From: Minisyncoccota bacterium
GTDB taxonomy: Bacteria > Patescibacteriota > Minisyncoccia > UBA6257 > 2-01-FULL-56-20
Length of the DNA stretch: 64,000 nt
Direction of reading: 5' to 3'
Assembly (NCBI GenBank): GCA_036510525.1
Contig: DATCDU010000020.1
Location: 246-64,245, forward strand
Of the stretch, positions 7,057-19,739 are shown piece after piece. The notes under the pieces were generated by a model. The model did not search any database. It saw only the letters and a program-made list of their open reading frames with translations, and had not been told where the DNA came from. Both the position numbers and the translations under genes were made by a program. The first letter of the stretch is position 1. Each line of letters starts with the position of its first letter.

Positions 7057-7725
7057 ATGAATCTGAAGAATATCCTTATCACGTTGTCCATCGTCGCGGT
7101 GGTGATTGTATGCGTGGCGTTCTACGTCGTGTTCTATAGCGGCGGAGGGACGTACGTCGTGAGCTCTCTCACCGGCCCGAATGCGGACATCTTTGGCGCG
7201 GGGACCGAAAATACCAGCACCTTGGGCGCAAGCTCGACCGCCAGCTCTACGGCGTTCGCGTCGTCATCCGCGCTTGACGACACCGGCGCGTCCTCTTCCG
7301 CAAGTTCCACCGCCTCATCGTCGCTTACGACCACACCGGGCAACACGACGGTCGTCTCGTGGACCCAGGGCAATGAGGCGCTTTTGATCACCGGCGCCCT
7401 GATCTCGGGCGATCAGCTCACACTCGGCGTCCAGGTGGCGATGGGCAGCGTCAGCGAATGCGTGCCGCTTAACCTCCGCCTGATCGCCGACGAACAGGGC
7501 GATCTTTCGCCACCGATCACATCGCAGTTCACCTTTCCGGACACCGGCACCTGCAACGGTACCGCGGGCGAGACCTACAGCGCCCAGCCGATCGTCTTCA
7601 CGCTCAGCGATCCCAGCGCCTTCCCCATCGTCCTCACGACTGGCGGCACGGCCAACATCCTCTTTGAGGTCGTGCAGGATCCCGACGGCAGGCTGAGCGC
7701 CCAACTGCCGCCGAGCTCGGATTAA
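7057..7725 (+). CDS. Membrane-anchored Ser/Thr-rich hypothetical protein
   Basis: N-terminal TM helix (ILITLSIVAVVIVCVAFYVVF), low-complexity S/T/A region; 222 aa. Confidence 0.5.
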   Translation: MNLKNILITLSIVAVVIVCVAFYVVFYSGGGTYVVSSLTGPNADIFGAGTENTSTLGASSTASSTAFASSSALDDTGASSSASSTASSSLTTTPGNTTVVSWTQGNEALLITGALISGDQLTLGVQVAMGSVSECVPLNLRLIADEQGDLSPPITSQFTFPDTGTCNGTAGETYSAQPIVFTLSDPSAFPIVLTTGGTANILFEVVQDPDGRLSAQLPPSSD

Positions 7726-7791
7726 AAATTGATTAAATGACCGCTATTGAAAATCCACCCCCGTCTGCTACAATAGTATTCGTATTGTAAT

Positions 7792-8072
7792 TCCGCGATA
7801 GCTCAATGGTAGAGCGGCGCCCTGTCAGCAAGGCAGCTCGCATCGGAAACGGTGCGATGATAAAAATCTTGGGATAACGGTGAATGCTAAGTCCGCAAGG
7901 ATATGCGAATACCGTGGGAACCCTCCGCACGGGAGGGGCACCGTAGAGACTAGATACCGAGATGCCTAACACCCGCAATGGGCGGGTCATGGCAATGATA
8001 TAGTCCACGCCTCTTGGAAACATTAGGAAACGTGTAAGGCGATGGTTCCAGGTTCGAGTCCTGGTCGCGGAG
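7792..8072 (+). tRNA. tRNA-Asn(GUU) interrupted by a group I intron in the anticodon loop (alternative reading Thr-UGU)
   Basis: 5' exon TCCGCGA-TA-GCTC-AATGGTA-GAGC-G-GCGCC-CTGT (7792-7825); 3' exon TAA-GGCGA-TGGTT-CCAGG-TTCGAGT-CCTGG-TCGCGGA-G (8035-8072). Spliced product has anticodon loop CUGUUAA, U1-A72 and G73 as in E. coli tRNA-Asn. Confidence 0.75.
7826..8034 (+). ncRNA. Group I self-splicing intron (~209 nt) in tRNA-Asn
   Basis: Contains group I conserved R element GTAGAGACTAGA (ccgtagagactagatacc) and S element GATATAGTCC; 5' exon ends in U; intron ends in G before the 3' exon. Confidence 0.7.
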
Positions 8073-8138
8073 CAGTCAATATCTTTTATCGGACAGACCG
8101 AGAGGCATCGATTTTTGCTATCTTTTTTGATGCTAAAA

Positions 8139-8162
8139 GTTCGAGTCCTACTCCTATGGCAT
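8139..8162 (+). repeat. Degenerate second copy of the tRNA-Asn 3' end (T-loop and acceptor-like)
   Basis: gttcgagtcct identical to 8052-8062; continues ...actcctatggca versus the native ...ggtcgcggagca. Confidence 0.45.
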
Positions 8163-8309
8163 CTAGGACACCGAACTCAGCGCTTTAACTTGAATTTAAG
8201 TCGCGGAATTTTAATTGACATTTATATTAAAATATGTTTTACTCACACTAGCTACTCACAACTGAAAACTAGGTTGGAGAGGTGGCAAATTTCTGAAAGG
8301 AGATAGCGC

Positions 8310-8858
8310 ATGAACTTCTTTGTTTGTATCGAAGGTGTCGATTGTGTCGGAAAAACCTCCGTTGCTGAATTGCTAGCCAGCCGGGTCAACGCTGTCTACT
8401 ATAAAAGTCCCGGCGGCATGTATGCTAAGGAACGAAAGATCGTAGATGGATCGATTGAACCTTTGCGACGGTATTTCTTTTACCGGGCGGCTACCCAGTA
8501 CGACTCGGGGATTATTGGCGGATTACTCAAACATTCGCCCGTTGTCTGCGATAGGTATATCTATTCAACCTTTGCCATGCACGCGGCAATGGACGAAAAG
8601 ATCCGATCTCTCTTTGAAATCACTGGCCTCGTCATGCCGGACTACGTTTTTCTTTTGACCGCCGATGAGGCGATCCGAAGAAAACGTCTAGCCGAACGCT
8701 TCGATGCCACGACGCTGGAAAGCAATTTTCTGCTTCAGAAAAAGGCAGATGAACTTTTCAAGCTTCAAGGACATCCAACCATCGATACGACAAATACAAA
8801 TGTCGATGAAGTGGTTGAAACAATCTTGTCTCGCTTGCGAGAGAAAGGATCGATATGA
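8310..8858 (+). CDS. Thymidylate-kinase-family P-loop dNMP kinase
   Basis: IEGVDCVGKTS P-loop and CDRYIYST (DRY/DRF motif); 182 aa; ATGA overlap with the next gene (translational coupling). Confidence 0.6.
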   Translation: MNFFVCIEGVDCVGKTSVAELLASRVNAVYYKSPGGMYAKERKIVDGSIEPLRRYFFYRAATQYDSGIIGGLLKHSPVVCDRYIYSTFAMHAAMDEKIRSLFEITGLVMPDYVFLLTADEAIRRKRLAERFDATTLESNFLLQKKADELFKLQGHPTIDTTNTNVDEVVETILSRLREKGSI

Positions 8859-9592
8859 CGCTACGCAGCCCACTGTGGTACGAGAGATTCTTCAAGATTG
8901 CGCTTCTCGAAAGAAAAGAGAAGGCGCAGGCCGTTGCCAGGATGCTGCAAGAAATTGCGCAACCCGGCAACTTGAGAACAATGTTCGATGAATTCTTGTA
9001 TGAAGTGACCACGTCGGTTCACCAAAACACGGATTCATACACCCACGACAATGGCTTCGACAAAATCGTCCTCTTTGAGGATGATAAGACCAAACTGAAG
9101 ATGCGGCTGCATATTTGGCACCCGCTTCTCATTCCTGGTGCCAAACGGCCGCGGCAGAATGTTCACAACCATCGCTGGGACTTCGGCTCTGTCATCTTAC
9201 TCGGACATGCCGACCACCTTACCTACCAGTTCGCCAAACAAAATAGTGAGGGTGAAGAATTCTTCCATTATCGCTATTACGCCCGAGGCAGCAAAGAGCA
9301 CTACGAACTCGAAGAACTCGGGAAAGCCAAGTTAGTGTGCCTTGGAAGCGAACGTTTCGAAGCAGGTCAACTTTACTACATCGACAACGAAGTTCTGCAC
9401 CGCGTGGACATCGATGACAATATCGCGGTGGCGACCCTCATCATCACGCATGAAAACGTTGGCTGGATCACGAACGACCTGCTTTCTGAAAAGAGCATGG
9501 GGTTTGAAAAGGTCCGACTCCAATCTCCCGCCATGGCCAGAGAGCAAATCGTCTCCAAGGTCACGGCATTGCGCGAGTTGCTCCACATCTAA
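8855..9592 (+). CDS. Cupin-fold protein with cysteine-dioxygenase/ADO-like metal-site pattern
   Basis: IPGAKRPRQNVHNHRWDFGSVILLGHADHLTYQF aligns by eye to the CDO PG..S.IHDH....F.K.L.G...E..F region; 245 aa; function inferred only. Confidence 0.4.
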   Translation: MTLRSPLWYERFFKIALLERKEKAQAVARMLQEIAQPGNLRTMFDEFLYEVTTSVHQNTDSYTHDNGFDKIVLFEDDKTKLKMRLHIWHPLLIPGAKRPRQNVHNHRWDFGSVILLGHADHLTYQFAKQNSEGEEFFHYRYYARGSKEHYELEELGKAKLVCLGSERFEAGQLYYIDNEVLHRVDIDDNIAVATLIITHENVGWITNDLLSEKSMGFEKVRLQSPAMAREQIVSKVTALRELLHI

Positions 9593-9604
9593 CAAGGAGG
9601 ATGT

Positions 9605-10114
9605 ATGGCAAGAATCTACGTAAGCGAGGAACGGCTGAAAAAACTTCAGCGGGAACTCGAAGACGCCCATGCTGGCCTCAGTGGATTGCGTAAGGAAAAG
9701 AATCTTGCGTACACCGCTACTGGCGACACGTGGCATGACAACCCCTACTTCAACAAATTAACTCAAGACGAGGAAACGCTGGCTCGGAAGATCGCCGAAA
9801 TCCAGCAAACTATCTCCGAAGCCGAAATCTACAATCCATCCGTACGGAACATCGAACAGGTTCGGCTAGGCTCGATCGTACGCTTCGCGCGACGTTATAA
9901 AAATAACAGCGAAGAGACGGACGAGACCTGGGAGATTGTCGGATTTGGCGAAACCGATGTACCCCAGAATCGCGTCGCATACAATGCTCCACTTGGAGCT
10001 GCGCTGATCGGCATGGGGCCAGGCGATACCAAGCAAGCGACGACGCCTAAAGGTGCTGTTGAGTATGAAGTCATCGATCTGTATCCCGACTGGGATGCGG
10101 TGCCGAAAAAATAA
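9605..10114 (+). CDS. greA: GreA/GreB-family transcript cleavage factor
   Basis: N-terminal coiled coil (EERLKKLQRELEDA), C-terminal FKBP-like domain (...SPLGAALIGMGPGDTKQATTPKGAVEYEVIDL); 169 aa. Confidence 0.6.
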   Translation: MARIYVSEERLKKLQRELEDAHAGLSGLRKEKNLAYTATGDTWHDNPYFNKLTQDEETLARKIAEIQQTISEAEIYNPSVRNIEQVRLGSIVRFARRYKNNSEETDETWEIVGFGETDVPQNRVAYNAPLGAALIGMGPGDTKQATTPKGAVEYEVIDLYPDWDAVPKK

Positions 10115-10200
10115 TAGAATTTGGTTTTGAAGACTCAATCTATGGTCGTTCCTCTTTAAAGGGAGCGGCCATTTTTTTGTGATATCATAAAGATTAACCG

Positions 10201-10875
10201 ATGATAAAAGGCATCATATTCGACTTTGACGGCGTCCTGATTGATTCTGAACACATCAATATTACTGCTGGTATTCAAGCGTTCAAGGAATTTGGTTACG
10301 ACTTATCCAACGCCGACAAAAAATTAATACCGGGCCAGCATTCTGAGAACGTCATATCGCAGATTCTGAAATTGCGAGGATTAGATCTGCCGAAAGAAGC
10401 CTTACGAGAACAATACAGTAAAGCGTACGGGGATATGTGGGAAGATGCAGTTACCGTTATGCCGCAGGCGAAGGAGACATTGCAACGACTAAAGAGCGGT
10501 GGAATCACGCTCGGCCTCGCGACCAATAATTATAGATCGCGGGTCGAAACCTTCCTTAAACAAACCGAGCTCGGAAACATTTTCTCCGTGATCGTAAGCG
10601 GCGAAGATGTAGCGAAGAGGAAACCCGATCCGGAAGTTTATGTAAGAGCAAAGATAAAATTAGGTCTTCCCGACGAGTCAATTCTCGCTATCGAAGACGG
10701 AGCAGTCGGCCTTGCATCGGCAAAGGGTGCGGGACTCCGATGCGCAATCATTCTCAATCAATACAGCGCGGGCCAAGATTTCTCAAATGCGGACTTCGTG
10801 TTTAAATCCCTGGCGGAACTCATAAACCACCTCAGCGAGAATAAACTGATGGATAAAATTTTTTTACCAGCTTAG
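10201..10875 (+). CDS. HAD-superfamily hydrolase (beta-phosphoglucomutase-like subfamily)
   Basis: DxD motif (MIKGIIFDFDGVLIDSE), later K and DD motifs (AIEDGAVG). Confidence 0.8.
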   Translation: MIKGIIFDFDGVLIDSEHINITAGIQAFKEFGYDLSNADKKLIPGQHSENVISQILKLRGLDLPKEALREQYSKAYGDMWEDAVTVMPQAKETLQRLKSGGITLGLATNNYRSRVETFLKQTELGNIFSVIVSGEDVAKRKPDPEVYVRAKIKLGLPDESILAIEDGAVGLASAKGAGLRCAIILNQYSAGQDFSNADFVFKSLAELINHLSENKLMDKIFLPA

Positions 10876-11353
10876 GGAGATCGCTTTTTGATTTGTCGCC
10901 AGTCGCCAATTTTTTAAGAAGTTCTTCTGGTGTGAGCCAATAGTATTCAATGAAATCGCTTTTATTGAAATTTGGAATCGAATCGGATTTTATCTCGTAC
11001 ACATTCATGAAAGCGGACACGCCGTCTTTGTTAGGACTTAGATGCCCAAGGAGCGGATGTGGTGTGGCTTCAGCATTTAAGCCAAGCTCTTCCTCTAATT
11101 CTCTTCCGAATGCTTCTTCATAACTTTCACCGGACGAGACATGCCCCCCCATGCTCATATCAAGGCCAAGCGGGAAAAGACGTTTATTAGCAGCTCGACG
11201 GGGAATCCATATTTTCCCCTCGGAGTTCACAATAAAAGCATTCACGACTCGAAAATTACTTAATCCCTCGGCATAGACTTCTGAGCGCGGTTTTGAGCCA
11301 ACGACCTGATCATTTTCATCCACCAAATCCAAAATTTCTTCGGCGCTAGACAT
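10832..11353 (-). CDS. NUDIX hydrolase
   Basis: Nudix box GGHVSSGESYEEAFGRELEEELGL. Confidence 0.8.
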   Translation of the reverse strand: MSSAEEILDLVDENDQVVGSKPRSEVYAEGLSNFRVVNAFIVNSEGKIWIPRRAANKRLFPLGLDMSMGGHVSSGESYEEAFGRELEEELGLNAEATPHPLLGHLSPNKDGVSAFMNVYEIKSDSIPNFNKSDFIEYYWLTPEELLKKLATGDKSKSDLPKLVKKFYPSVYSR

Positions 11354-11572
11354 TTTTATTTTAAAAATTTTATTCCTATATTTTATCCGGAGGAGTTTCC
11401 TTTCTCACAATTTTATAAAAATATATTCCCTTCGTTCGCCTACTCAATGTACCATTATATATGTATATTTCAAGTGTGCAGCTCAAAAACCTGACCCCAC
11501 TGAGACTCGAACCGGATTTTCAACAAAATCGAAAACAAAAAGTGAGGTTTTTTAATGCTTTTTTGAAACTAG

Positions 11573-11629
11573 TTCGAGTCGAAGTGCCGGAGCAGTCTAG
11601 TTTTAGTATCGGACAGACCGAGGGGCGTC
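11573..11629 (+). repeat. Partial duplicate of the tRNA-Asn 3' end plus downstream 45 nt (attR-like remnant)
   Basis: ttcgagtc-gaag-tgccgga-g-ca-gtctagttttagtatcggacagaccgaggggcgtc aligns with 8053-8109; an inverted, more degenerate copy of the T-loop/acceptor segment lies at 11491-11515. Confidence 0.5.
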
Positions 11630-11630
11630 A

Positions 11631-11664
11631 GTGAAATCCCCGTTCACAGGAACGGGGATTTCAC
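11631..11664. terminator. 15-bp perfect hairpin downstream of dcm (bidirectional terminator candidate)
   Basis: gtgaaatccccgttc-acag-gaacggggatttcac; no clean U-run. Confidence 0.35.
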
Positions 11665-11697
11665 GTTCTGCATGCCCTATATTTAACACCAAGGGGA

Positions 11698-12810
11698 TTA
11701 GGCGAAATATCTCTTAAATTGCTTTGCCCACGCCTCGGCAAGTAAAGGAGGAACAGCATTGCCCACCTGGGCATAATAATTTCTCTTATTGGACGAAGAA
11801 AGGCGGAACCAATCCGGGAATGATTGTATCCGCATGCCCTCCCGTATGGTTATCAAGCGATCAGCGGAATAATGGATGTTGCAACCGACATTCGGTCTAT
11901 TGAAATGGGTGTTCAACGTATAAGGCGTCCGATTGGGATGCAATCTTCCATAGGTAGTCGTACGGCCACCAGTTTTTTTGAAGTTCATGATCCTCTTCGT
12001 CGCTATAGAATCTGGAACGTCCATGTAGTTGCCACCGGGTTTCACTGCTTTAATGATTTCCTTATCCTTGGCACTGGCATACGGCGGGTAATGATGATAA
12101 ACCCCCCGAGATCCAATTCTCATCTTCTCTTGAAATTCACTTGATGGCTTTGAACGATACTGGAGTGGTTCATTGGAGGATGGGCGCGGCAAATCAGATA
12201 GAGCTTCCTTCGCGGTCACCCACTTTTTTAATCCATCGCCGCCATCTTCACTATGGGTAGGTTTAGGCAGTGGTATCTTCAAGCCCGAAGAAGTGCCGAT
12301 AATAAATACCCGCCTGCGTCTTTGCGGAACGCCGTAATCGGCGGCATTCAAAACGTGCGTCTCTATCCTGTAACCAGCAGCACCAAATGCCTCGCGGAGG
12401 TCGTCAATGACAGACTCACCTCTTTCATTTTCCGCCGAACGGAGACCGAGAACGTTTTCGAATAGGAATGCAGCTGGCCTAACTGCCTTCAAGACATCTA
12501 AGTAGTTCCACACAAGGCGGCTTCTAATGTCATCGGATTTGCGTTTACCAACAAGGGAAAAGGATTGGCATGGAGGACCGCCAATAACTAAATCGGCTTT
12601 CGGTATGCTTTTGAAATTCACGCCCCCTATGTCGGCACACAACGTATCAGCTTTAAAATTATTTCTGAAGGTTGTGCAAAAATCTTCAACGACATCATTG
12701 GCCCAGAGAACCTTAAATCCTTGTTCGTGAAAGCCGAGGTCTAAGCCGCCGCATCCAGAGAATAAGCTGACAATCGTTGGTTTAGCCATTTTGGTTTGAT
12801 CTGTCATCAA
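11698..12810 (-). CDS. dcm: DNA cytosine-5 methyltransferase
   Basis: Motif I FSGCGGLDLGF, motif IV GGPPCQSFS, motif VI FLFENV; 370 aa. Confidence 0.9.
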   Translation of the reverse strand: MMTDQTKMAKPTIVSLFSGCGGLDLGFHEQGFKVLWANDVVEDFCTTFRNNFKADTLCADIGGVNFKSIPKADLVIGGPPCQSFSLVGKRKSDDIRSRLVWNYLDVLKAVRPAAFLFENVLGLRSAENERGESVIDDLREAFGAAGYRIETHVLNAADYGVPQRRRRVFIIGTSSGLKIPLPKPTHSEDGGDGLKKWVTAKEALSDLPRPSSNEPLQYRSKPSSEFQEKMRIGSRGVYHHYPPYASAKDKEIIKAVKPGGNYMDVPDSIATKRIMNFKKTGGRTTTYGRLHPNRTPYTLNTHFNRPNVGCNIHYSADRLITIREGMRIQSFPDWFRLSSSNKRNYYAQVGNAVPPLLAEAWAKQFKRYFA

Positions 12811-14348
12811 CTAGATCTTTCAAGAACAACTCAGCGAAGTCGGCCAATTTCGCATTGTTTTCAAATCCACCGATTCCATGATTGATTAATACCGAAGCCA
12901 TCGCTAGATCTAAATCTCGCCTTGGAGTTTCTATTCCTTCGTCACCCTTGACGCTCTCGCCTAAAGCATCGAACTGTTCGAGCGCGGCGCACAACGAATC
13001 AACCTCTTCGGATTTAAGTTCGTCGGGATCAATGGATTTCATCCCTCTCACCATGAAAGCTTCTATTTTTAGCATGCCCTCTTGGTTACCACCCTCGAGT
13101 TCGAACTGTAATTGACCGAAAGCGGACATAAGGTATGACGCTATCACCTTCAAAGATTTGTCGTTACCAAACTTGCGACGCAACAGTCCGCTCGTATAAC
13201 AAAAATTCGTCGATAGTAAAATTCCCTGCTCAGGCGATGCTACATAAATCGCATGCTTTTCCCTAGCTGCCCGGGGGATCAATAATTCCGCCTTTACCTT
13301 GCTGTGGTATGCCGCGTCGACGACCTTCTTCCATTTAGCACGCCCGATGCGTGCCTGCGCTTCCAGAAAAAGCTTGCCAAGGCCGGTGTTTTGGAACACT
13401 TTAAGAGATGATGGCATCGACATCATTTTCTATTGCACGCTTCAGATGTTCGCCATCCTGGTTGCTTAAGAATTTTTCCATCAAAATCACACCTGCACGT
13501 CCTCGCTCCTTCAAATAGTGCCCTATCCAATCCATAAAATAGAAATAAAGGTTCGGCTGCTTCGCCTCCTCCACAATCGTTTTCCCACCATTCGCGGACT
13601 TGAGCGCCTTAATCATGGCTTGTTTGCGGCTGTCAGGTATTGGGTTCTCCGGATCGTCGTTTCGTAGAAAAGGTGGATTCATCAGCACGGCGTTAAATTG
13701 TGCCGGACGCGGATTTGAGAATACGTCCCCGTTAATGAAGTCGATTTCCGTAGAGCTGTCTACTGCATTTAGATTCTTGGCAAGTAACCGGAATGCTGCA
13801 AGCTGGTTTCCGGTCGGCGCTTGGCCCGGCCAGAGTCCCATCTCGACCCGCGTTCTGAGTCCCCGCTTCACATTCACGCTCTTATTATCGTTCTCCAGTT
13901 TTGCCTGCGAGCATAAGATCATCAGCAGAAATTTATCGCTGGGCGAATTCTTGAATCCCTGCCCGAACGTTTTTATCTCCACCAATGATTTTTGATCCAT
14001 CAGGTCCACAAGTGCCCCGAGGTCGCCCGCGTTCCTGCTCAGCCGGTCCGGCGCCCACGTGAGAATACCGTTGAACCGCGCCGCCTTCAGATCATTCACT
14101 ATTTCATTGAAGACCGGACGCTGGTTGGAATCTTTTGCCGAATGGGACTCCCGCCGGATATCGGCGACTTCCAGCCCTTCCCGCTCGGCGATCTGGAGCA
14201 TCTCCTTAACCTGCGAATCGATGGACAGCACCTGCTTCTCCTCGCTTTCGCTCGATTTCCGCGCGTAGAGCACGTATTTGACCTTTATTGGCACCTGCAC
14301 CGCTATTTGGGTTCCGCTCCCCGGCGACCCCATGGTTTGGTTTGTCAT
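12782..14348 (-). pseudogene. Chimeric, frameshifted remnant: large-serine-recombinase catalytic domain fused in frame to a gamma-class N6-adenine MTase (HsdM-like) that lacks motif I
   Basis: ORF 13401-14348 has resolvase N-terminus (YARKSSESEEKQVLSIDSQ...DRLSRN...GLWPGQAPTG), then the MTase motif IV region (IDFINGDVFSNPRPAQFNAVLMNPPF...GRAGVILMEKFL...VDAIIS). ORF 12782-13426 continues the MTase in another frame (LPSSLKVFQNTGLG...). No FxGxG AdoMet motif anywhere. Confidence 0.55.
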
Positions 14349-14435
14349 ACATCAATGAATGACGCACCTCTCCTGGCAAGTCCAGACCTCACTACAAGGC
14401 GACGAAGTTACCCATTTGCCTAGTTAGATACGATC

Positions 14436-15002
14436 CTAAGCCGTTGGAAGAGCCTTTGGCGGATCAAACTTGCACCGCTCGCCATTCACTAGGCCGAAAC
14501 CGGTGAGATGGATAAAGAACAGGTCCCAATCGTCGCCGCCATCGGTCGTACTCACGCATTCGTCGTTGATGTACTTTGTTGCGCTATACTTTTTATCTTT
14601 GTCGTCGTAGCCGATTATGAGATGACAATTGTCTCCGTAGACGTTGCGATATCTCATGCAGCTCAAATAGCCATCTTTTTTGTAAGTATGGAATTCCGGT
14701 TCATAGAGAGCGCTACCGGTTACCTGTCGCCCATTGTCAATCCGTGTGCCCATATAGAGGACATTGAAGGGAAAGCGGTTCAGCTCTGGATTCCAGGAAA
14801 TCTCCAAACGCTGCGGCACGAAAGCGAATCTCGTTTTTGCGTCTTTCTTGAGTATTGCTTTTTCTTCTTTGTTAAATTGTCTCATAAAATTGCGAAACCC
14901 TGCCGCGAGGCAGGGATGATAAATGTTTGCTTCGACCTTTATCTTTCCCTTGCGGGCTGGATGTAGCACCGTATCGTTTCCGATTGGTTGCCGGTGGGTC
15001 AT
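14436..15002 (-). CDS. Hypothetical protein (188 aa), no recognisable domain
   Basis: ORF only; low-GC island context. Confidence 0.4.
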   Translation of the reverse strand: MTHRQPIGNDTVLHPARKGKIKVEANIYHPCLAAGFRNFMRQFNKEEKAILKKDAKTRFAFVPQRLEISWNPELNRFPFNVLYMGTRIDNGRQVTGSALYEPEFHTYKKDGYLSCMRYRNVYGDNCHLIIGYDDKDKKYSATKYINDECVSTTDGGDDWDLFFIHLTGFGLVNGERCKFDPPKALPTA

Positions 15003-15194
15003 TGAGCCAGTGCTCTCGCCACACTCTTGATAACTATTCAGTTGTGCTTACCATTCCATTCTAGCAAATGCTTCAAACAATACAAGCGACTTTCTCCGGT
15101 GTAAGCTTCATTTTTCCCGACCCAATGTATCTTGTATTGTTTCGCATCGCGCGGCCGATCGACGAGAAGACGAGGCGTGAAGTCGTGTATCAGT

Positions 15195-15831
15195 CTAGGC
15201 ACCATACCGCTGCATAATTTTATCAGCGATTTCTCTTCTTTCGCCCAATTTCATTTTTGAGTCATGGTTCGGCAATTTGTTGACCTTCGCAACATATACC
15301 TCGCTTGCTTTTAAAAATTGACTCCACGATAATCGTATAACCTTCCCTTTCTTTACAAAAAAAACATATTTCATTTTTAGGATTTGCCCATAGCTGCGCC
15401 AGAAAGCCATATTACGCCCTATGTAATCGAACAATAACTGATAAATATTCCGGCTCGCATAAGAGGAACCAATCGCCCAACACACATAAGCGCACCAACT
15501 GCGGTATTTTGTTTTGATAGATTTTTGCTTCCTATGCGTAAGCGGCGCAGTCACCAATCCAGAGAACGAACCGATGAACGATCCCCTCTTTTGAGTGCCT
15601 AGAGAAGAGCGAGTAAAATTTCTTGCGCCACTCCTCATTCCTCCTTACCTGATAAAAATAATTGAACTTTCTTTGATACTCTGCGGAAATATCTGCAGCG
15701 TCTGCCTGGAATAAATTCTCACGGAGAAAAATATAAACACCGAGAACTTTCTCCCATTTTTTTGAGTCTCGCTCGGCAAAAATGTCATCGATCTCCTCCC
15801 GGGTGAGTTCTATAGTTATTTCATTAGTCAT
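15195..15831 (-). CDS. Hypothetical protein in two overlapping frames (15532-15831 and 15195-15638); possible frameshifted single gene
   Basis: Two same-strand ORFs overlapping by ~107 nt; no recognisable domain. Confidence 0.3.
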
Positions 15832-15924
15832 ACCTTATAGACTATTCAATGCTTGCTATCACTTTATTTCTATCACGTTAAGCAACTTTCGGCAAAATTG
15901 GCTCTATTATTGTAAAATTGACGC

Positions 15925-16224
15925 ATGAAGAAAAAGCCCAAGAAAATTAAGCTGGAGGATGTCATCCAAAAATATACACTCGATGATGTTGTCGAGTCTG
16001 AGGAATACAAGGAAGAGACGGAACAAGCGGAAAATGAGATTGAACAGCATCTTGAACTTCTTCAAGAATATATTGGGAGAGAACTTGTCGAAATCGAAAG
16101 ACGAGCCGTTCTTGATATCGTGGGCGAATATAGTACGAAGGATGACGATGGATATATCGTCTTATATTTCTCCTTCATCCAGGCGTGGAAGATTTATGAG
16201 CACCAGCGCAAGAAACTTTCATAA
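15925..16224 (+). CDS. Small acidic hypothetical protein
   Basis: 99-aa ORF rich in E/D; convergent with terL. Confidence 0.3.
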   Translation: MKKKPKKIKLEDVIQKYTLDDVVESEEYKEETEQAENEIEQHLELLQEYIGRELVEIERRAVLDIVGEYSTKDDDGYIVLYFSFIQAWKIYEHQRKKLS

Positions 16225-16236
16225 CGCCACACCGTC

Positions 16237-17415
16237 TTATTCCCCATAGCGTTTTTTGTCCTCAGTTATCCTCTTTTCGAGGTCTTCTTTCTTCGGATAG
16301 AAATACATATCATCCAAAAACTTGAAATACTTCGGATCATCAAGGCTCTCGAAAATCGGCATCGAGTGTCTCGGCGCATCGATCGCAAATTCTTTCATCT
16401 GGGACACGAGCGCTTTTTGATAGGGACTTACTCTTTTGTATCCATCTTTTAGACGATTGTTTTCTATCCTTTCCAATAAATCTCGCATTGAATCATCGGT
16501 CAAGAATTTTATGTTCGGTCCGTCCTCATTATTCTGCCCGTAGGATTTGAGGAGGTATTCCCGTATCCATATGCCAAGCGATACGCGCGTACGGAGTGCG
16601 AGCACTGCTTTGTGGTTTGGATATCGACTTTCCCATAAGTTCTTCCCTCGGTCGTCAATCAACGGATAGGCCCGAAATATACCTTGAATCTTTCCAGTGA
16701 GAATCTCGAGACGGAGCCGCAAAATAAATGAGTCCCGATTCATTGTGGGATCACCCCAGTAATGCGACAGGAGATTCCCAAGAACAATGACCTTCGTATC
16801 CGCATTTCCAAGCGGGAGTATCTCACTTTCAAACCATTGCCCAAGCGCCGCAGCAAGCGTTCGGTCTTCCACTGACACGCTGTCTTCGAGATCGTCACAA
16901 ATAATGAGATCCGGCCGGTACTGGTTGTGCTTTAACCCTCGCACCCGTTGGTCGCGGGAGATGGAGAGAATTTTCGCGCCACAGTAATCGAGCTCAAGCG
17001 ACAATCGATTCCATGCGGCCTCGTTTTCTGTGAACGGACCGAAATCTTCCCTAAGCGCCTCATTGCCTTCGAGTTCTGCTTTAATATTCAAGAAGTGGTT
17101 CTTTGCCTGCTCTTGGGTATTGCTTACGATGATCACGAATTTCTTCCCCGGCTTGCCGAGGATAGACCAGAGAACATTTGCCATATTCATGATTGTCGAT
17201 TTGCCGGATTCGCGGAATGCCATCACGACCACAAAGTTGTATTTCTCTTCCTGGATCAAATGAAACATCTCCATATGGAAGGCTGCCAGCGGAGCGCTCA
17301 AATGATGACGCAGATACAATAAGGTGAACCAAAACGGGCTTTCGTATGCAAGCCGCTGACGTACCCGTTTATTTCCCCGTATCTTTTCGAGTTCGTTTGC
17401 GGTGATCTTTTTCAT
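16237..17415 (-). CDS. Phage terminase large subunit
   Basis: Walker A-like AFRESGKST, Walker B LIICDDLED, C-terminal nuclease-like region; 392 aa. Confidence 0.8.
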   Translation of the reverse strand: MKKITANELEKIRGNKRVRQRLAYESPFWFTLLYLRHHLSAPLAAFHMEMFHLIQEEKYNFVVVMAFRESGKSTIMNMANVLWSILGKPGKKFVIIVSNTQEQAKNHFLNIKAELEGNEALREDFGPFTENEAAWNRLSLELDYCGAKILSISRDQRVRGLKHNQYRPDLIICDDLEDSVSVEDRTLAAALGQWFESEILPLGNADTKVIVLGNLLSHYWGDPTMNRDSFILRLRLEILTGKIQGIFRAYPLIDDRGKNLWESRYPNHKAVLALRTRVSLGIWIREYLLKSYGQNNEDGPNIKFLTDDSMRDLLERIENNRLKDGYKRVSPYQKALVSQMKEFAIDAPRHSMPIFESLDDPKYFKFLDDMYFYPKKEDLEKRITEDKKRYGE

Positions 17416-17827
17416 TGGTTTTTCCTGCGGCGAGGTTCAGAGCGTCAAGCACCAGTTTTTCTTCTTCGGGAGAAAGCTCGTCCGCCGATGCGATAGGAAC
17501 GTACGGCTGACTCTTCGAACCGTACCGCGCGTGATGGTGCTTCAGCCACAACGTAATCGCCGGCATCTTTTTTTCTTTGATGAGCGCGATGAGTTGCGTT
17601 TCGCTCATGTCATTCACGAATTCGATGCCGCGATCCATGGCATCCCGACTTTGCCGCATGAAGTCCTTGTCCTCCTGCCGCCAGCGATAGTACGTAGCAG
17701 AACTCACTCCCGCGCGTTTGCACGCCACGGTGATGACAGGCATCTCTTTCAAGAATTCGACGAGCCCTTGTTTATTGTCGTCCCGCCGCTCTATAACCGA
17801 GGGATTCTCCGCCGGATTAACAGGCAT
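17369..17827 (-). CDS. Phage terminase small subunit-like HTH protein
   Basis: HTH (ACKRAGVSSATYYRWRQ) directly upstream of, and overlapping, terL. Confidence 0.55.
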   Translation of the reverse strand: MPVNPAENPSVIERRDDNKQGLVEFLKEMPVITVACKRAGVSSATYYRWRQEDKDFMRQSRDAMDRGIEFVNDMSETQLIALIKEKKMPAITLWLKHHHARYGSKSQPYVPIASADELSPEEEKLVLDALNLAAGKTNEKDHRKRTRKDTGK

Positions 17828-17923
17828 TGATTCTTACGGCGGTAAGACCGGTCAGTTTCTCCCAGCGCCTCTTTATCACTTCGGCATACACCGGCGACTT
17901 TTCCATGAGGTAGCACCGGCGTT

Positions 17924-18004
17924 GCATCCCCTCCTCCGACCGACCCCTCTGGGACGCCCATGAAACCTCGCTACACGGGATTCAAGTCCGAGGTGGGGAG
18001 CAAA
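17924..18004 (+). repeat. ~80-bp direct repeat, copy A
   Basis: gcatcccctcctccgaccgacccctctgggacgcccatgaaacctcgctacacgggattcaagtccgaggtggggagcaaa; ~90% identical to 19067-19151; 3' part resembles a tRNA T-loop/acceptor end (ttcaagtcc...ggagca). Confidence 0.6.
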
Positions 18005-18033
18005 TCTTATTTTCTGTGTGTTAAGCTGTTTGT

Positions 18034-18105
18034 GATGCGGTAGCCAAGTGGTTAAGGCATTTGTCTGCAAAGCAAATCTCGTAGGTTCGACTCCTACCCG
18101 CATCT
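18034..18105 (+). tRNA. tRNA-Cys(GCA)
   Basis: GATGCGG-TA-GCCA-AGTGGTTA-AGGC-A-TTTGT-CTGCAAA-GCAAA-TCTCG-TAGGT-TCGACTC-CTACC-CGCATC-T; clean cloverleaf. Confidence 0.85.
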
Positions 18106-18106
18106 C

Positions 18107-19051
18107 ATGACTGCAAAAGAATACATCGAGCAGAGGTTGGAGGGCATGAAAGATAAAAGTATTGAGCCAAATATGAAACTGGCCGACTTTATTTTTGCGA
18201 GCATAATGTCAAAGAAGTTCAGAAAATATAGCGTGAACCCCGCAACCAACGACACGGTTCGTAAAGCCATCGAATTGAACATCGGGAATAACGAGCCCAT
18301 AAAAATCGCCATCCCGTTCGGTACCTATAAATTATGGAGGTTGGAGGAAAGCCCCGAACCGGACTGGGCTGAATTGTTCACGATGATCTATTACGCTTAC
18401 TGGCTAAAGCCCATAACGACCGTATACGAACCAGGGGTATGGTTTGATTTTTGCGGAGACGATGCAATCTTGGAATTGATGAATAATATTCCTGAAGTGG
18501 ATACTGAAAGATATAAAAAAGTTTTTAGAGAGCTGATAAATTTTATGGGGCGTTACCTGCCGGAAAATTTTAAATACACCCTCAGTCCCGTAGGTGAAAG
18601 ATACAGTTCACGAGAAGAATTTCTTGCCGACCTTAATGAAAAGATCAAAACACTAGAGCAGAATGGCGGTATCACACTGACTGAACGGGATATTGAAATG
18701 ATGAGGTTCAATATAATACCAAAAGCCGACACGGAGACAGATTTTAAAAAGAATCGGGTCTTACACGATGCATATATGGCGGTAAGCAAACGAAGAGCTC
18801 ATCATAAACGGCCAGATAAAATTCTTATATCAGCAACCCCTTTTGGCGATAGAACGAGCATCCCCCTGGGGACCACAAAAGCTTCTGTTGTTAAATTCCA
18901 AACAGGTGCGGGTGTTTTAAAAAGAAACAACGATAGTTTTGTGGAATATATCTATTCACCCTCACAACTAGAAGGCGGCAAGTTTCAATGGGAAGATATT
19001 CAAATCGAGGGGTTAACGGGAAAGAACTTCAGCCGAATAAGAATCGCATAG
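18107..19051 (+). CDS. Hypothetical protein (314 aa), no recognisable domain; starts 2 nt after tRNA-Cys
   Basis: ORF only; AT-rich; sits between the two 80-bp direct repeats. Confidence 0.5.
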   Translation: MTAKEYIEQRLEGMKDKSIEPNMKLADFIFASIMSKKFRKYSVNPATNDTVRKAIELNIGNNEPIKIAIPFGTYKLWRLEESPEPDWAELFTMIYYAYWLKPITTVYEPGVWFDFCGDDAILELMNNIPEVDTERYKKVFRELINFMGRYLPENFKYTLSPVGERYSSREEFLADLNEKIKTLEQNGGITLTERDIEMMRFNIIPKADTETDFKKNRVLHDAYMAVSKRRAHHKRPDKILISATPFGDRTSIPLGTTKASVVKFQTGAGVLKRNNDSFVEYIYSPSQLEGGKFQWEDIQIEGLTGKNFSRIRIA

Positions 19052-19066
19052 ATTCTTCGACTGAGG

Positions 19067-19151
19067 TGCATCGTTCCCCTCCACCGACCGACCCTCTGGG
19101 ACGCCCACGAAACCTCGCTCCATGGGATTCAAGTCCGAGGTGGGGAGCAAA
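19067..19151 (+). repeat. ~80-bp direct repeat, copy B (ends in the SD of the EEP gene)
   Basis: Aligns with 17924-18004; ends ...ggtggggagcaaag immediately before the ATG at 19153. Confidence 0.6.
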
Positions 19152-19152
19152 G

Positions 19153-19686
19153 ATGAAAATAGTATTTCTGAACACTTGGAACGGAAAAGTTCAGGATGGA
19201 ATATCCGACTTCATCAAAGAACAATCCACCGATACAGATGTTTTTTGTTTGCAAGAAGTATACGAGGAGATGAGACTACTCTGTAAAAAGCTTCTTCCGG
19301 ATTACAAAGAGGTCGTCGCGTATAAACGCATAGGCATAGAGAATGATTTTCCGCAGGCAACCTATTTAAAGAAAGGGTTACATCTACTATCTTCTGAAAT
19401 AGTGCTGGACAACCAGCCGGGCAAGGCCAATCCCAGCGACAAGAGTAGCTGGCAAAGTGGCGACCACCACCTACCGAAAAATGAGCGTAAGCTCTGGGGC
19501 GGGGCAATCGACGCCCATGGCCTGATTCTCTCTTTCACTGGCGCCCCCGAACTCGGCGATGAAGCCGCAATGCTCCTTGCTGCTGTGCGGATGGGGCTCC
19601 TTGATGAGGGTGAGGCGCTTGAGATCGCAACCATCAGCATCAATACGGTGTACACATCGGTCATTCGTTTATACCCCTACGAATGA
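19153..19686 (+). CDS. Endonuclease/exonuclease/phosphatase (EEP) family protein, apparently truncated
   Basis: MKIVFLNTWNG...DVFCLQEV N-terminal EEP motifs; only ~178 aa versus ~250-300 expected; the ORF-track start at 18988 runs through the repeat and is probably not the real start. Confidence 0.5.
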   Translation: MKIVFLNTWNGKVQDGISDFIKEQSTDTDVFCLQEVYEEMRLLCKKLLPDYKEVVAYKRIGIENDFPQATYLKKGLHLLSSEIVLDNQPGKANPSDKSSWQSGDHHLPKNERKLWGGAIDAHGLILSFTGAPELGDEAAMLLAAVRMGLLDEGEALEIATISINTVYTSVIRLYPYE

Positions 19687-19700
19687 TCACCGGCGCCAAT

Positions 19701-19739
19701 GGCAACAATCTCACTACGAGGTTGTTGCCTATTTTTTTA
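19701..19739 (+). terminator. Intrinsic terminator after the EEP gene
   Basis: ggcaacaa-(13 nt)-ttgttgcc followed by tatttttttat. Confidence 0.6.

Follow-up and report, generated by a model that had tools for sequence, protein, structure and literature searches.

Temperate phages that integrate at the 3΄ ends of tRNA genes carry a copy of the tRNA 3΄ segment in attP, and the sublocations used within the gene are the anticodon loop, the T-loop and the 3΄ end. In the integrative and conjugative elements (ICEs) of the ICESt1 type and the streptococcal integrative mobilizable elements (IMEs), tandem accretion at tRNA genes and the formation of cis-mobilizable elements (CIMEs) have been described (PMC5704250). 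The ssrA islands of Dehalococcoides are likewise tandem and low in GC; they are bounded by repeats of the ssrA 3΄ end with ~85 bp conserved around the repeats, their integrase is a serine recombinase, and some islands without integration genes were proposed to be CIMEs (PMC3146451). Here we describe a locus in a 64,000-nt stretch of a Minisyncoccota bacterium (contig DATCDU010000020.1; the whole stretch is hereafter called the window), in which two copies of a ~93-nt direct repeat, the 'alpha' element, flank a tRNA-Cys(GCA) gene and an open reading frame (ORF) of 314 aa. We estimate the probability at about 0.7 that the DNA between positions 8075 and ~19420 consists of horizontally acquired integrative units, stacked by tandem accretion against the 3΄ end of a tRNA gene that contains an intron (the anchor tRNA), and that the tRNA-Cys cassette is one of these units, integrase-less and cis-mobilizable.

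The evidence that carries this reading comes from a comparison with L002, a contig of a related organism that encodes a protein 100% identical to the 314-aa ORF. The features concerned are as follows (positions are those of the window unless a contig is named).

7793-8074, plus strand: anchor tRNA gene whose anticodon loop is interrupted by a group I intron of ~209 nt; it ends ...GGTTCGAGTCCTGGTCGCGGAGCA and is 95% identical to L002 587-868.
17913-18002, plus strand: repeat copy A (alpha), the attachment arm at the right end of unit 2, with GGGATTCAAGTCCGAGGTGGGGAGCA as its terminus; homology with L002 restarts right after its GGAGCA.
18003-19149: unit 3, the cassette of tRNA-Cys and ORF, whose right end is copy B, followed by the fragment of an endonuclease/exonuclease/phosphatase (EEP) gene.
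18003-18033, plus strand: left end of the cassette and spacer, AATCTTATTTTCTGTGTGTTAAGCTGTTTGTG; identical in L002, where it lies directly after the anchor tRNA.
18034-18106, plus strand: tRNA-Cys(GCA), called by ARAGORN and by Rfam (67.2 bits), with discriminator U73 and no encoded CCA.
18107-19051, plus strand: the 314-aa ORF, a member of a Patescibacteria family with a remote relation to DIT1/PvcA/IsnA; its ATG lies 1 nt after the tRNA discriminator.
19057-19149, plus strand: repeat copy B (alpha), which forms the right attachment arm of the cassette and reads GACTGAGGTGCATC at its start and ...GGGGAGCA at its end.

A repeat search of the window recovered the duplication as two direct repeat blocks (17945-18004 against 19092-19151 and 17927-17946 against 19075-19094, each 95% identical), separated by a 1-nt indel that reflects an extra C in copy A. 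By BLAST the two copies are 93.6% identical over 78 nt, with four differing positions and one indel, and their common terminal 26-mer GGGATTCAAGTCCGAGGTGGGGAGCA occurs exactly twice in the 64-kb window, compared with 0.00 occurrences expected from shuffles. The full length of ~93 nt was obtained from an alignment with the copies on other contigs, in which the element opens with GACCGAG(R)(N)(N)C(R)TC and closes with GGGGAGCA; the copy in L007 closes with GGGGCGAG instead. Copy A has diverged over its first ~15 nt and carries a 4-nt deletion there. Copy B is complete and is identical in L002 and in L010, a JGI contig, with divergence straight after GGGGAGCA. These results bear out the initial annotation of this DNA in that two direct repeats flank a block of two genes, tRNA-Cys(GCA) and the ORF, and that the block is AT-rich (43.5% GC, compared with 54% in the rest of the window); the placement of the ORF start 2 nt after tRNA-Cys had to be corrected, since a single C lies between the discriminator U73 and the ATG.

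We compared the cassette and its flanks between the window and L002. The cassette of 1,147 bp (18003-19149) corresponds to L002 869-2015 and is identical at 1145 of 1147 positions (99.83%), and on either side its boundary falls at GGAGCA. The flanking orthologues are far less similar: 82.9% for the neighbouring gene, 78.7% at the nucleotide and 80% at the amino acid level for the SET gene, and 95% for the tRNA with its intron. Given this difference, the exchange of the cassette must be much younger than the divergence of the genomes, and the block can be regarded, as first proposed, as a discrete, site-specifically bounded and recently moved unit. Positions 79-868 of L002 are orthologous to positions 7288-8074 of the window. 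From the tRNA end ...GCGGAGCA, L002 continues without interruption into AATCTTATTTTCTG..., tRNA-Cys, the ORF and copy B. In the window, 9.9 kb of low-GC DNA separate the orthologous tRNA from AATCTTATTTTCTG..., and this DNA has copy A (...GGGGAGCA) at its far end. Because the alignments of flank and cassette abut in L002, the window contains a 9.9-kb insertion relative to L002, exactly between ...GGAGCA and AATCTT...; that is, L002 lacks positions 8075-18002 with a break precisely between these two motifs. In the window, the anchor tRNA accordingly ends at 8074 and the low-GC foreign DNA begins at 8075.

This comparison bears on the proposal of the initial annotation that the repeat arose in situ, either as a duplication of the target site or att core upon insertion of the cassette, or as a duplicated 5΄ region of the EEP gene. 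Such a process would leave what is seen here, namely an AT-rich two-gene block between direct repeats of ~93% identity, with copy B abutting the EEP start codon. However, the cassette in L002 has copy B alone, and the place of copy A is taken there by the tRNA end, which shares only GGAGCA with it; moreover, copy A is as close to the copies on other contigs (93.5% to that in L009 and 92.5% to that in L011) as to copy B, and the EEP homologues lack the element. In situ duplication is therefore highly improbable in both forms: copy A ends the neighbouring 9.9-kb insertion, and copy B ends the cassette itself. A relative with a single copy and tRNA-Cys at the same place had also been named as an observation that would count against the duplication, and L002 has just this arrangement; the duplication in the window is nonetheless real.

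An assembly artefact, namely a mis-join or a collapsed repeat, was considered as well, because metagenome assemblies often break or are mis-joined at repeats and because both L009 and L011 end 100 nt past the element. Against this, copies A and B differ at four positions and an indel, both are present in a second assembly record (L001) that is 100% identical over 8,260 nt, and the right junction of the L002 type recurs in L010. Since L001 reproduces the region in full, the duplication is no one-off mis-assembly, and we give the artefact hardly any credence.

The DNA upstream of copy A proved to be related to a phage-like contig, L011, which encodes a ParB-methylase and the small and large terminase subunits (TerS and TerL). 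The products of the window genes before copy A are 42% (TerS) and 41% (TerL) identical to those of L011, the genes have the same orientation to alpha in both, and positions 14907-15581 of the window are 95% identical to the other end of L011. From the terminase homology, the position of alpha and the match to the L011 end, it follows that copy A is the end of a decayed L011-like prophage, which constitutes unit 2 of the array. The remaining features of the array are as follows.

8075-11595, no strand assigned: unit 1, of 46% GC, with Tmk-like, GreA-like, HAD and NUDIX genes (Pfam); its left end is GTCAATATCTTTTATCGGACAGACCGAGAGGCATC.
11494-11595, no strand assigned: 'beta' element of ~100 nt, the right end of unit 1; it ends TTCGAGTCGAAGTGCCGGAGCA.
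11596-18002, no strand assigned: unit 2, the decayed prophage, with the left-end motif GTCTAGTTTTAGTATCGGACAGACCGAGGGGCGTC (11596-11629) and copy A as its right end.
13401-14348, minus strand: chimeric recombinase ORF, in which a serine-recombinase catalytic domain (aa 26-171; PF00239, 1.6e-19) is followed by an Eco57I/N6-methyltransferase fragment (PF07669/PF02384).
16237-17415, minus strand: truncated TerL fragment of the decayed prophage.
17369-17827, minus strand: TerS of the decayed prophage, identified by Pfam, PHROGs and the comparison with L011.

The GC content is 40-48% across the units, compared with 54% elsewhere in the window. Each of the four junctions in the window (8074, 11595, 18002 and 19149) ends in GGAGCA after a TTCRAGT T-loop mimic. 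The right-end arms, alpha or beta, are 90-105 nt long and finish in a mimic of the tRNA T-loop and acceptor, RTTCRAGT-N9-10-GGAGCA; aligned with the 3΄ end of the anchor tRNA, the alpha end agrees at 20 of 29 positions, and so does the beta end. Thus, the resemblance of the repeat ends to a tRNA T-loop/acceptor end that had been seen at first is real, and the repeats are sequences of the attachment-site type. A left-end motif, GTCWAnnTnTTnnTATCGGACAGACCGAGRGGC, opens the next unit in two of the units; a motif search located it at 8087-8106 and 11607-11626, compared with 0.01 expected. The boundary at 11595/11596 was placed by these motifs and not by an empty site.

The same junction grammar was found in L009, where positions 98-151 and 1790-1924 hold left-end and beta elements that are 87% identical to those of the window, around unrelated cargo. 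Homology stops exactly after GGGGAGCA on the right in the window, in L002/L010 and in L009/L011: copy B of the window and L002 have everything upstream in common and diverge right after GGGGAGCA, and L009 and L011 share 100 nt downstream of alpha and have unrelated DNA upstream. For this comparison, genome and metagenome collections were scanned with the exact seed, in which the L010 copy equals that of L002; the seed matches in L006 and L008 were rejected as coincidences within coding sequences. Among viral contigs, the exact 26-mer and two shorter seeds gave chance matches only, none of which passed the re-check with nhmmer and BLAST.

Positions 1-3850 of L009 comprise two small units in the order GAGCA followed by GTCAACATTTAGTATCGGACAGACCGA, an ABC transporter pair, beta with GGAGCA followed by GTCAAC, two reverse-strand genes, and alpha ending in GGGGAGCA.

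If the units are arranged in this manner, the array might have been built as follows. Site-specific recombination would have added the units one by one at the anchor tRNA 3΄ end, with the crossover at or within GGAGCA, and the alpha or beta arm, GGAGCA and the left-end motif together would form the attP-like site of one family of elements. The attP of an L011-like phage would then be expected to consist of the alpha arm, GGAGCA and GTCAAYATTTAGTATCGGACAGACCGAG, and an empty site would read tRNA...GGAGCA joined to AAGATG-EEP or to the GCACTTGACGG flank. The cassette, which has no recombinase of its own, would behave like a CIME and travel by accretion with an autonomous neighbour such as the L011-like phage. 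Excision from the outer sites could release phage and cassette together, to be packaged; if the phage alone were excised, tRNA, cassette and copy B would remain in the order found in L002. The recombinase may have been a large serine recombinase, the only class of which a remnant is present.

Several observations weigh against this reading. No intact integrase was found in the array, which holds only the truncated serine recombinase, and tBLASTn with a single query, the integrase of L022, detected no tyrosine integrase in the window. Neither an excised circle nor a fully empty site, with the tRNA joined directly to host DNA, was seen among the contigs compared. Units 1 and 3 and both units of L009 contain no remnants of phage or conjugation genes and are assumed to be decayed elements. 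The left end of the cassette is only weakly similar to the left-end consensus. The alpha copies number six distinct ones in all (A, B and those in L005, L007, L009 and L011), and these were found with an exact 3΄ seed. Furthermore, a tRNA-Asn gene lies 1.3 kb upstream of tRNA-Cys in L003 as well, so that the linkage of the two tRNAs may be partly ancestral and not made by integration.

An alternative reading of the same junctions is an integron-like platform, in which small cassettes each carry one composite site (alpha or beta, GGAGCA and, when circular, the left-end motif), the recombinase is encoded elsewhere, and the units are not remnants of larger elements. In the window and in L009, the units of 1.1-3.5 kb with housekeeping-type cargo, no mobility genes and conserved ends fit this description, and the GGAG of the core can act as a ribosome-binding site for the next gene. 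However, there is neither an integron integrase nor a site of the attC type (GTTRRRY/RYYYAAC core): by inspection of the sequence and of the Pfam/PHROG matches, without the use of IntegronFinder, no attC cores were visible in alpha or beta and no integrase gene adjoined the array. The units also hold several genes each, in both orientations, one of them is clearly a decayed prophage, and the known model of accretion and CIMEs accounts for the same facts. We consider the platform an improbable explanation of the array, and tandem accretion of integrative units remains our preferred one.

The recombinase remnant at 13401-14348 is the only one found in the array, and its two domains are fused in frame. 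Its homologues carry PF00239 and PF07508, as in large serine recombinases. Across CPR (candidate phyla radiation) metagenomes such homologues are many and overwhelmingly short or partial (172-314 aa). In addition to this ORF, unit 2 contains a C5 cytosine methyltransferase with restriction-modification fragments, the TerL fragment and TerS, all assigned by Pfam and PHROGs, and a SAM riboswitch. At the left end of the prophage (11698-13426, minus strand), a complete C5 cytosine methyltransferase (Pfam 2e-70) stands beside a fragment of a BpuSI-like specificity domain, and these genes are remnants of a restriction-modification system. The SAM riboswitch (14936-15036, minus strand; Rfam 58 bits) lies upstream of an ORF at 14436-15002 that has no Pfam match; the riboswitch falls within the stretch (14907-15581) that matches the L011 end at 95% identity, and it is therefore phage-borne.

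We further analyzed the possibility that the repeat is itself a gene. ARAGORN called tRNA-Cys as the sole tRNA in the region and none at the alpha copies in L005-L011, and Rfam, at gathering thresholds and at E ≤ 10, assigned neither tRNA nor any other family to copies A and B or to the copies elsewhere. The T-loop-like GGGATTCAAGTCC in the repeat has no complementary 5-bp stem, as read from the sequence. With no cloverleaf under ARAGORN or the Rfam tRNA model and no T-stem, a tRNA gene in the repeat, which the initial annotation had wished to have checked, was rejected. A coding function was likewise rejected, because an indel puts copies A and B out of frame with each other and stop codons interrupt the EEP frame in most copies.

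Another reading holds that alpha is the gene of a structured small RNA, tRNA-like or regulatory, of host or phage, which served as the integration target or was carried for its own function. The plus-strand fold of the alpha consensus has 24 pairs with 95% of the cells paired, and of the one-sided changes 16 are wobble-compatible and 7 are not, with the minus strand breaking far more often; upstream of the solitary copies in L005 and L007 there is, moreover, a TATAAA-like box together with an inverted repeat that is conserved. In contrast, the single sequences show no significant folding relative to shuffles, with z-scores of -1.25 and +0.58 for the plus and -1.58 and -0.16 for the minus strand, and the consensus fold has no compensatory double changes, its 3΄ strands being invariant by ascertainment and the shuffle control, which equals the observed value, being uninformative. 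Given in addition the negative Rfam and ARAGORN results and the fact that all alpha copies lie at breakpoints between unrelated DNA, we regard an RNA gene as distinctly unlikely, and attachment arms as the better description of alpha.

Upstream of alpha in L005 (103-190, minus strand), L007 (1880-1950) and L011 (190-260, minus strand), we observed a conserved nested inverted repeat with the tandem motifs CAAATGAGACAC...GTGTCTCATTTGTCTCATTTG and a TATAAA box before it. This structure could represent protein-binding sites of the arm type or a promoter/operator.

Beyond copy B lies the EEP fragment.

19153-19686, plus strand: chimeric EEP ORF, in which ~88 N-terminal aa of a PF03372-family EEP protein, low in GC to ~19420, are fused to a high-GC remnant.

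The EEP gene was described from the outset as truncated, and this holds: only ~88 N-terminal aa align with homologues of 216-232 aa, so that ~88 of ~228 residues are retained. Its C-terminal part, which is high in GC, unrelated to EEP and without homologues, is fused in frame; the jump in GC at ~19420 marks both the fusion point and the right edge of the low-GC island, and a strong terminator-like hairpin follows the ORF at 19701-19729. As read from the sequence, the EEP start codon (ATG at 19153) is preceded at a distance of 5 nt by the GGAG of copy B. A role for alpha as a cis-regulatory or riboswitch leader of EEP was rejected, because the upstream regions of the EEP homologues at four loci (L012/13, L014/15 and L016) contain no alpha and gave no nhmmer match. 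For the same reason, copy B is not part of an EEP leader, and the repeat is not a duplicated 5΄ region of this gene; the truncated gene is a remnant of whatever lay beyond copy B.

The cargo of the cassette was examined next to its boundaries. The spacer 18003-18033 presumably carries the promoter of tRNA-Cys, and it contains no match to the sigma-70 consensus. The ORF belongs to a family with 964 homologues in Patescibacteria; in the literature we found nothing specific on this family or on attachment sites of CPR prophages. The initial annotation had given the ORF no recognisable domain, which holds for direct scans, in that the protein has no Pfam or PHROG match and falls below the gathering score of PF05141, but not for searches with the family and the fold, which yielded a remote relation to DIT1/PvcA. 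Matches to DIT1_PvcA (PF05141) at E ≤ 0.1 were obtained for 23 of 39 family members (best, 2.4e-5), and the family profile matches the isonitrile synthase 9dh4 of the Protein Data Bank (PDB; E = 7e-4) over the PAFPxKS/PDxAE region. An AlphaFold2 (AF2) model of the ORF product (pLDDT 89.9, pTM 0.90) had as its top eight Foldseek matches in the PDB PIsnA (9dh4/9dhm) and PvcA (3e59), with E values of 1e-10 to 5e-7 and TM scores of 0.54-0.61; tyrosyl-tRNA synthetase (TyrRS) and cyclodipeptide synthases were far weaker matches. The ORF product is thus, by its modelled structure, a remote protein of the PvcA/IsnA fold. It shares with PvcA/IsnA/Dit1 (3e59, 9dh4; PF05141) the predicted fold, a Lys and the D..AE residues, but it is only 15-17% identical to them, has the motif PFGxYKLW instead of PAFPxKS and, unlike them, is encoded by a gene that in one clade is joined to the 3΄ side of tRNA-Cys.

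The ATG lies 1-2 nt after the tRNA-Cys discriminator in five lineages whose ORFs are at least 77% identical (the window, 18105-18109; L003, 4311-4315; L004; and L017-L022); the ATG of L003 and L004 overlaps the CCA, which is encoded there. This juxtaposition leaves no room for a Shine-Dalgarno sequence. On the basis of the gene arrangement, it suggests a co-transcript of tRNA and mRNA, from which 3΄ processing of the tRNA may release a near-leaderless mRNA, and not a demonstrated tie to Cys-tRNA. A universal linkage of the ORF family to tRNA-Cys was rejected; two homologues at 48-50% identity (L095 and L096) have no tRNA nearby, and the juxtaposition is therefore specific to the clade.

The anchor tRNA was missed by ARAGORN in its unspliced form, and after splicing in silico it was called as a clean cloverleaf; the copy in L002 gave a weak match to the Rfam family Intron_gpI (22 bits). 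Splicing after U35 would produce tRNA-Asn(GUU), and splicing after U33 would produce tRNA-Thr(UGU). According to the splice-site rules of group I introns, the discriminator G73 and the likeness to the tRNA-Asn of L003, the gene most likely encodes tRNA-Asn(GUU), with tRNA-Thr(UGU) as a possible alternative.

The cargo of the units includes tRNA-Cys with the gene of the PvcA fold, ABC transporters and genes of nucleotide metabolism. A more far-reaching view is that this Patescibacteria lineage maintains at the tRNA gene a cassette-type platform for gene exchange, in which small non-autonomous units with variable cargo would be recognised solely by a ~140-nt composite site (the tRNA-mimicking right arm, GGAGCA and the left-end motif), where a recombinase supplied in trans by phages would insert, stack and excise these units, and where the cassette would spread a module of co-processed tRNA and leaderless mRNA, with an enzyme that may be tied to Cys or Cys-tRNA. 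We offer this as a speculation and think it unlikely to hold as a whole.

Little is charted so far of the mobile elements of CPR/Patescibacteria and of the sites where they integrate, and the locus is of use as a base-resolved example with defined junctions and a phage-like partner. It documents a 1.15-kb cassette that moved very recently between genomes whose flanking orthologues are ~79-83% identical, and it indicates that a unit without an integrase can carry a tRNA gene together with a conserved enzyme gene from genome to genome. The alpha and beta arms, GGAGCA and the left-end motif provide handles for finding further arrays and the recombinase. The mechanism class, tandem accretion with CIMEs, is already established in other phyla, and the conceptual gain is modest.

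Among known systems, integron cassettes resemble this array in that short cargo is followed each time by a conserved site of ~100 nt and in that one cassette recurs, precisely bounded, in more than one context; they differ in that IntI and attC cores are absent here, the units hold several genes in both directions, the array is anchored at a tRNA and the left ends are conserved. As in temperate phages that integrate at tRNA genes, a prophage remnant with a terminase abuts an attachment arm that resembles a T-loop and acceptor, and the tRNA is intact; here, however, the crossover apparently lies at the extreme 3΄ end (GGAGCA, acceptor and discriminator), no tRNA sequence is replaced, and the phage arm could not substitute for the tRNA end. 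The Dehalococcoides ssrA islands (PMC3146451) share the tandem low-GC units after a small-RNA gene, the conserved sequence at the repeats, a serine recombinase and integrase-less units, whereas here the target is a tRNA with a group I intron and not tmRNA, the exact common core is GGAGCA only, and the serine recombinase is truncated and a candidate for the role. The likeness is also evident for the accretion and CIMEs of ICESt1-type elements and streptococcal IMEs (PMC5704250), where tandem units lie at one tRNA 3΄ end with an att-type repeat at each junction and integrase-less units keep both ends; such composites, the present one included, could in principle be excised whole or in parts. In contrast to these systems, the present host belongs to the Patescibacteria (CPR), the partner is phage-like and not an ICE, and the ~93-nt arm mimics the tRNA end (20/29) and does not copy it.

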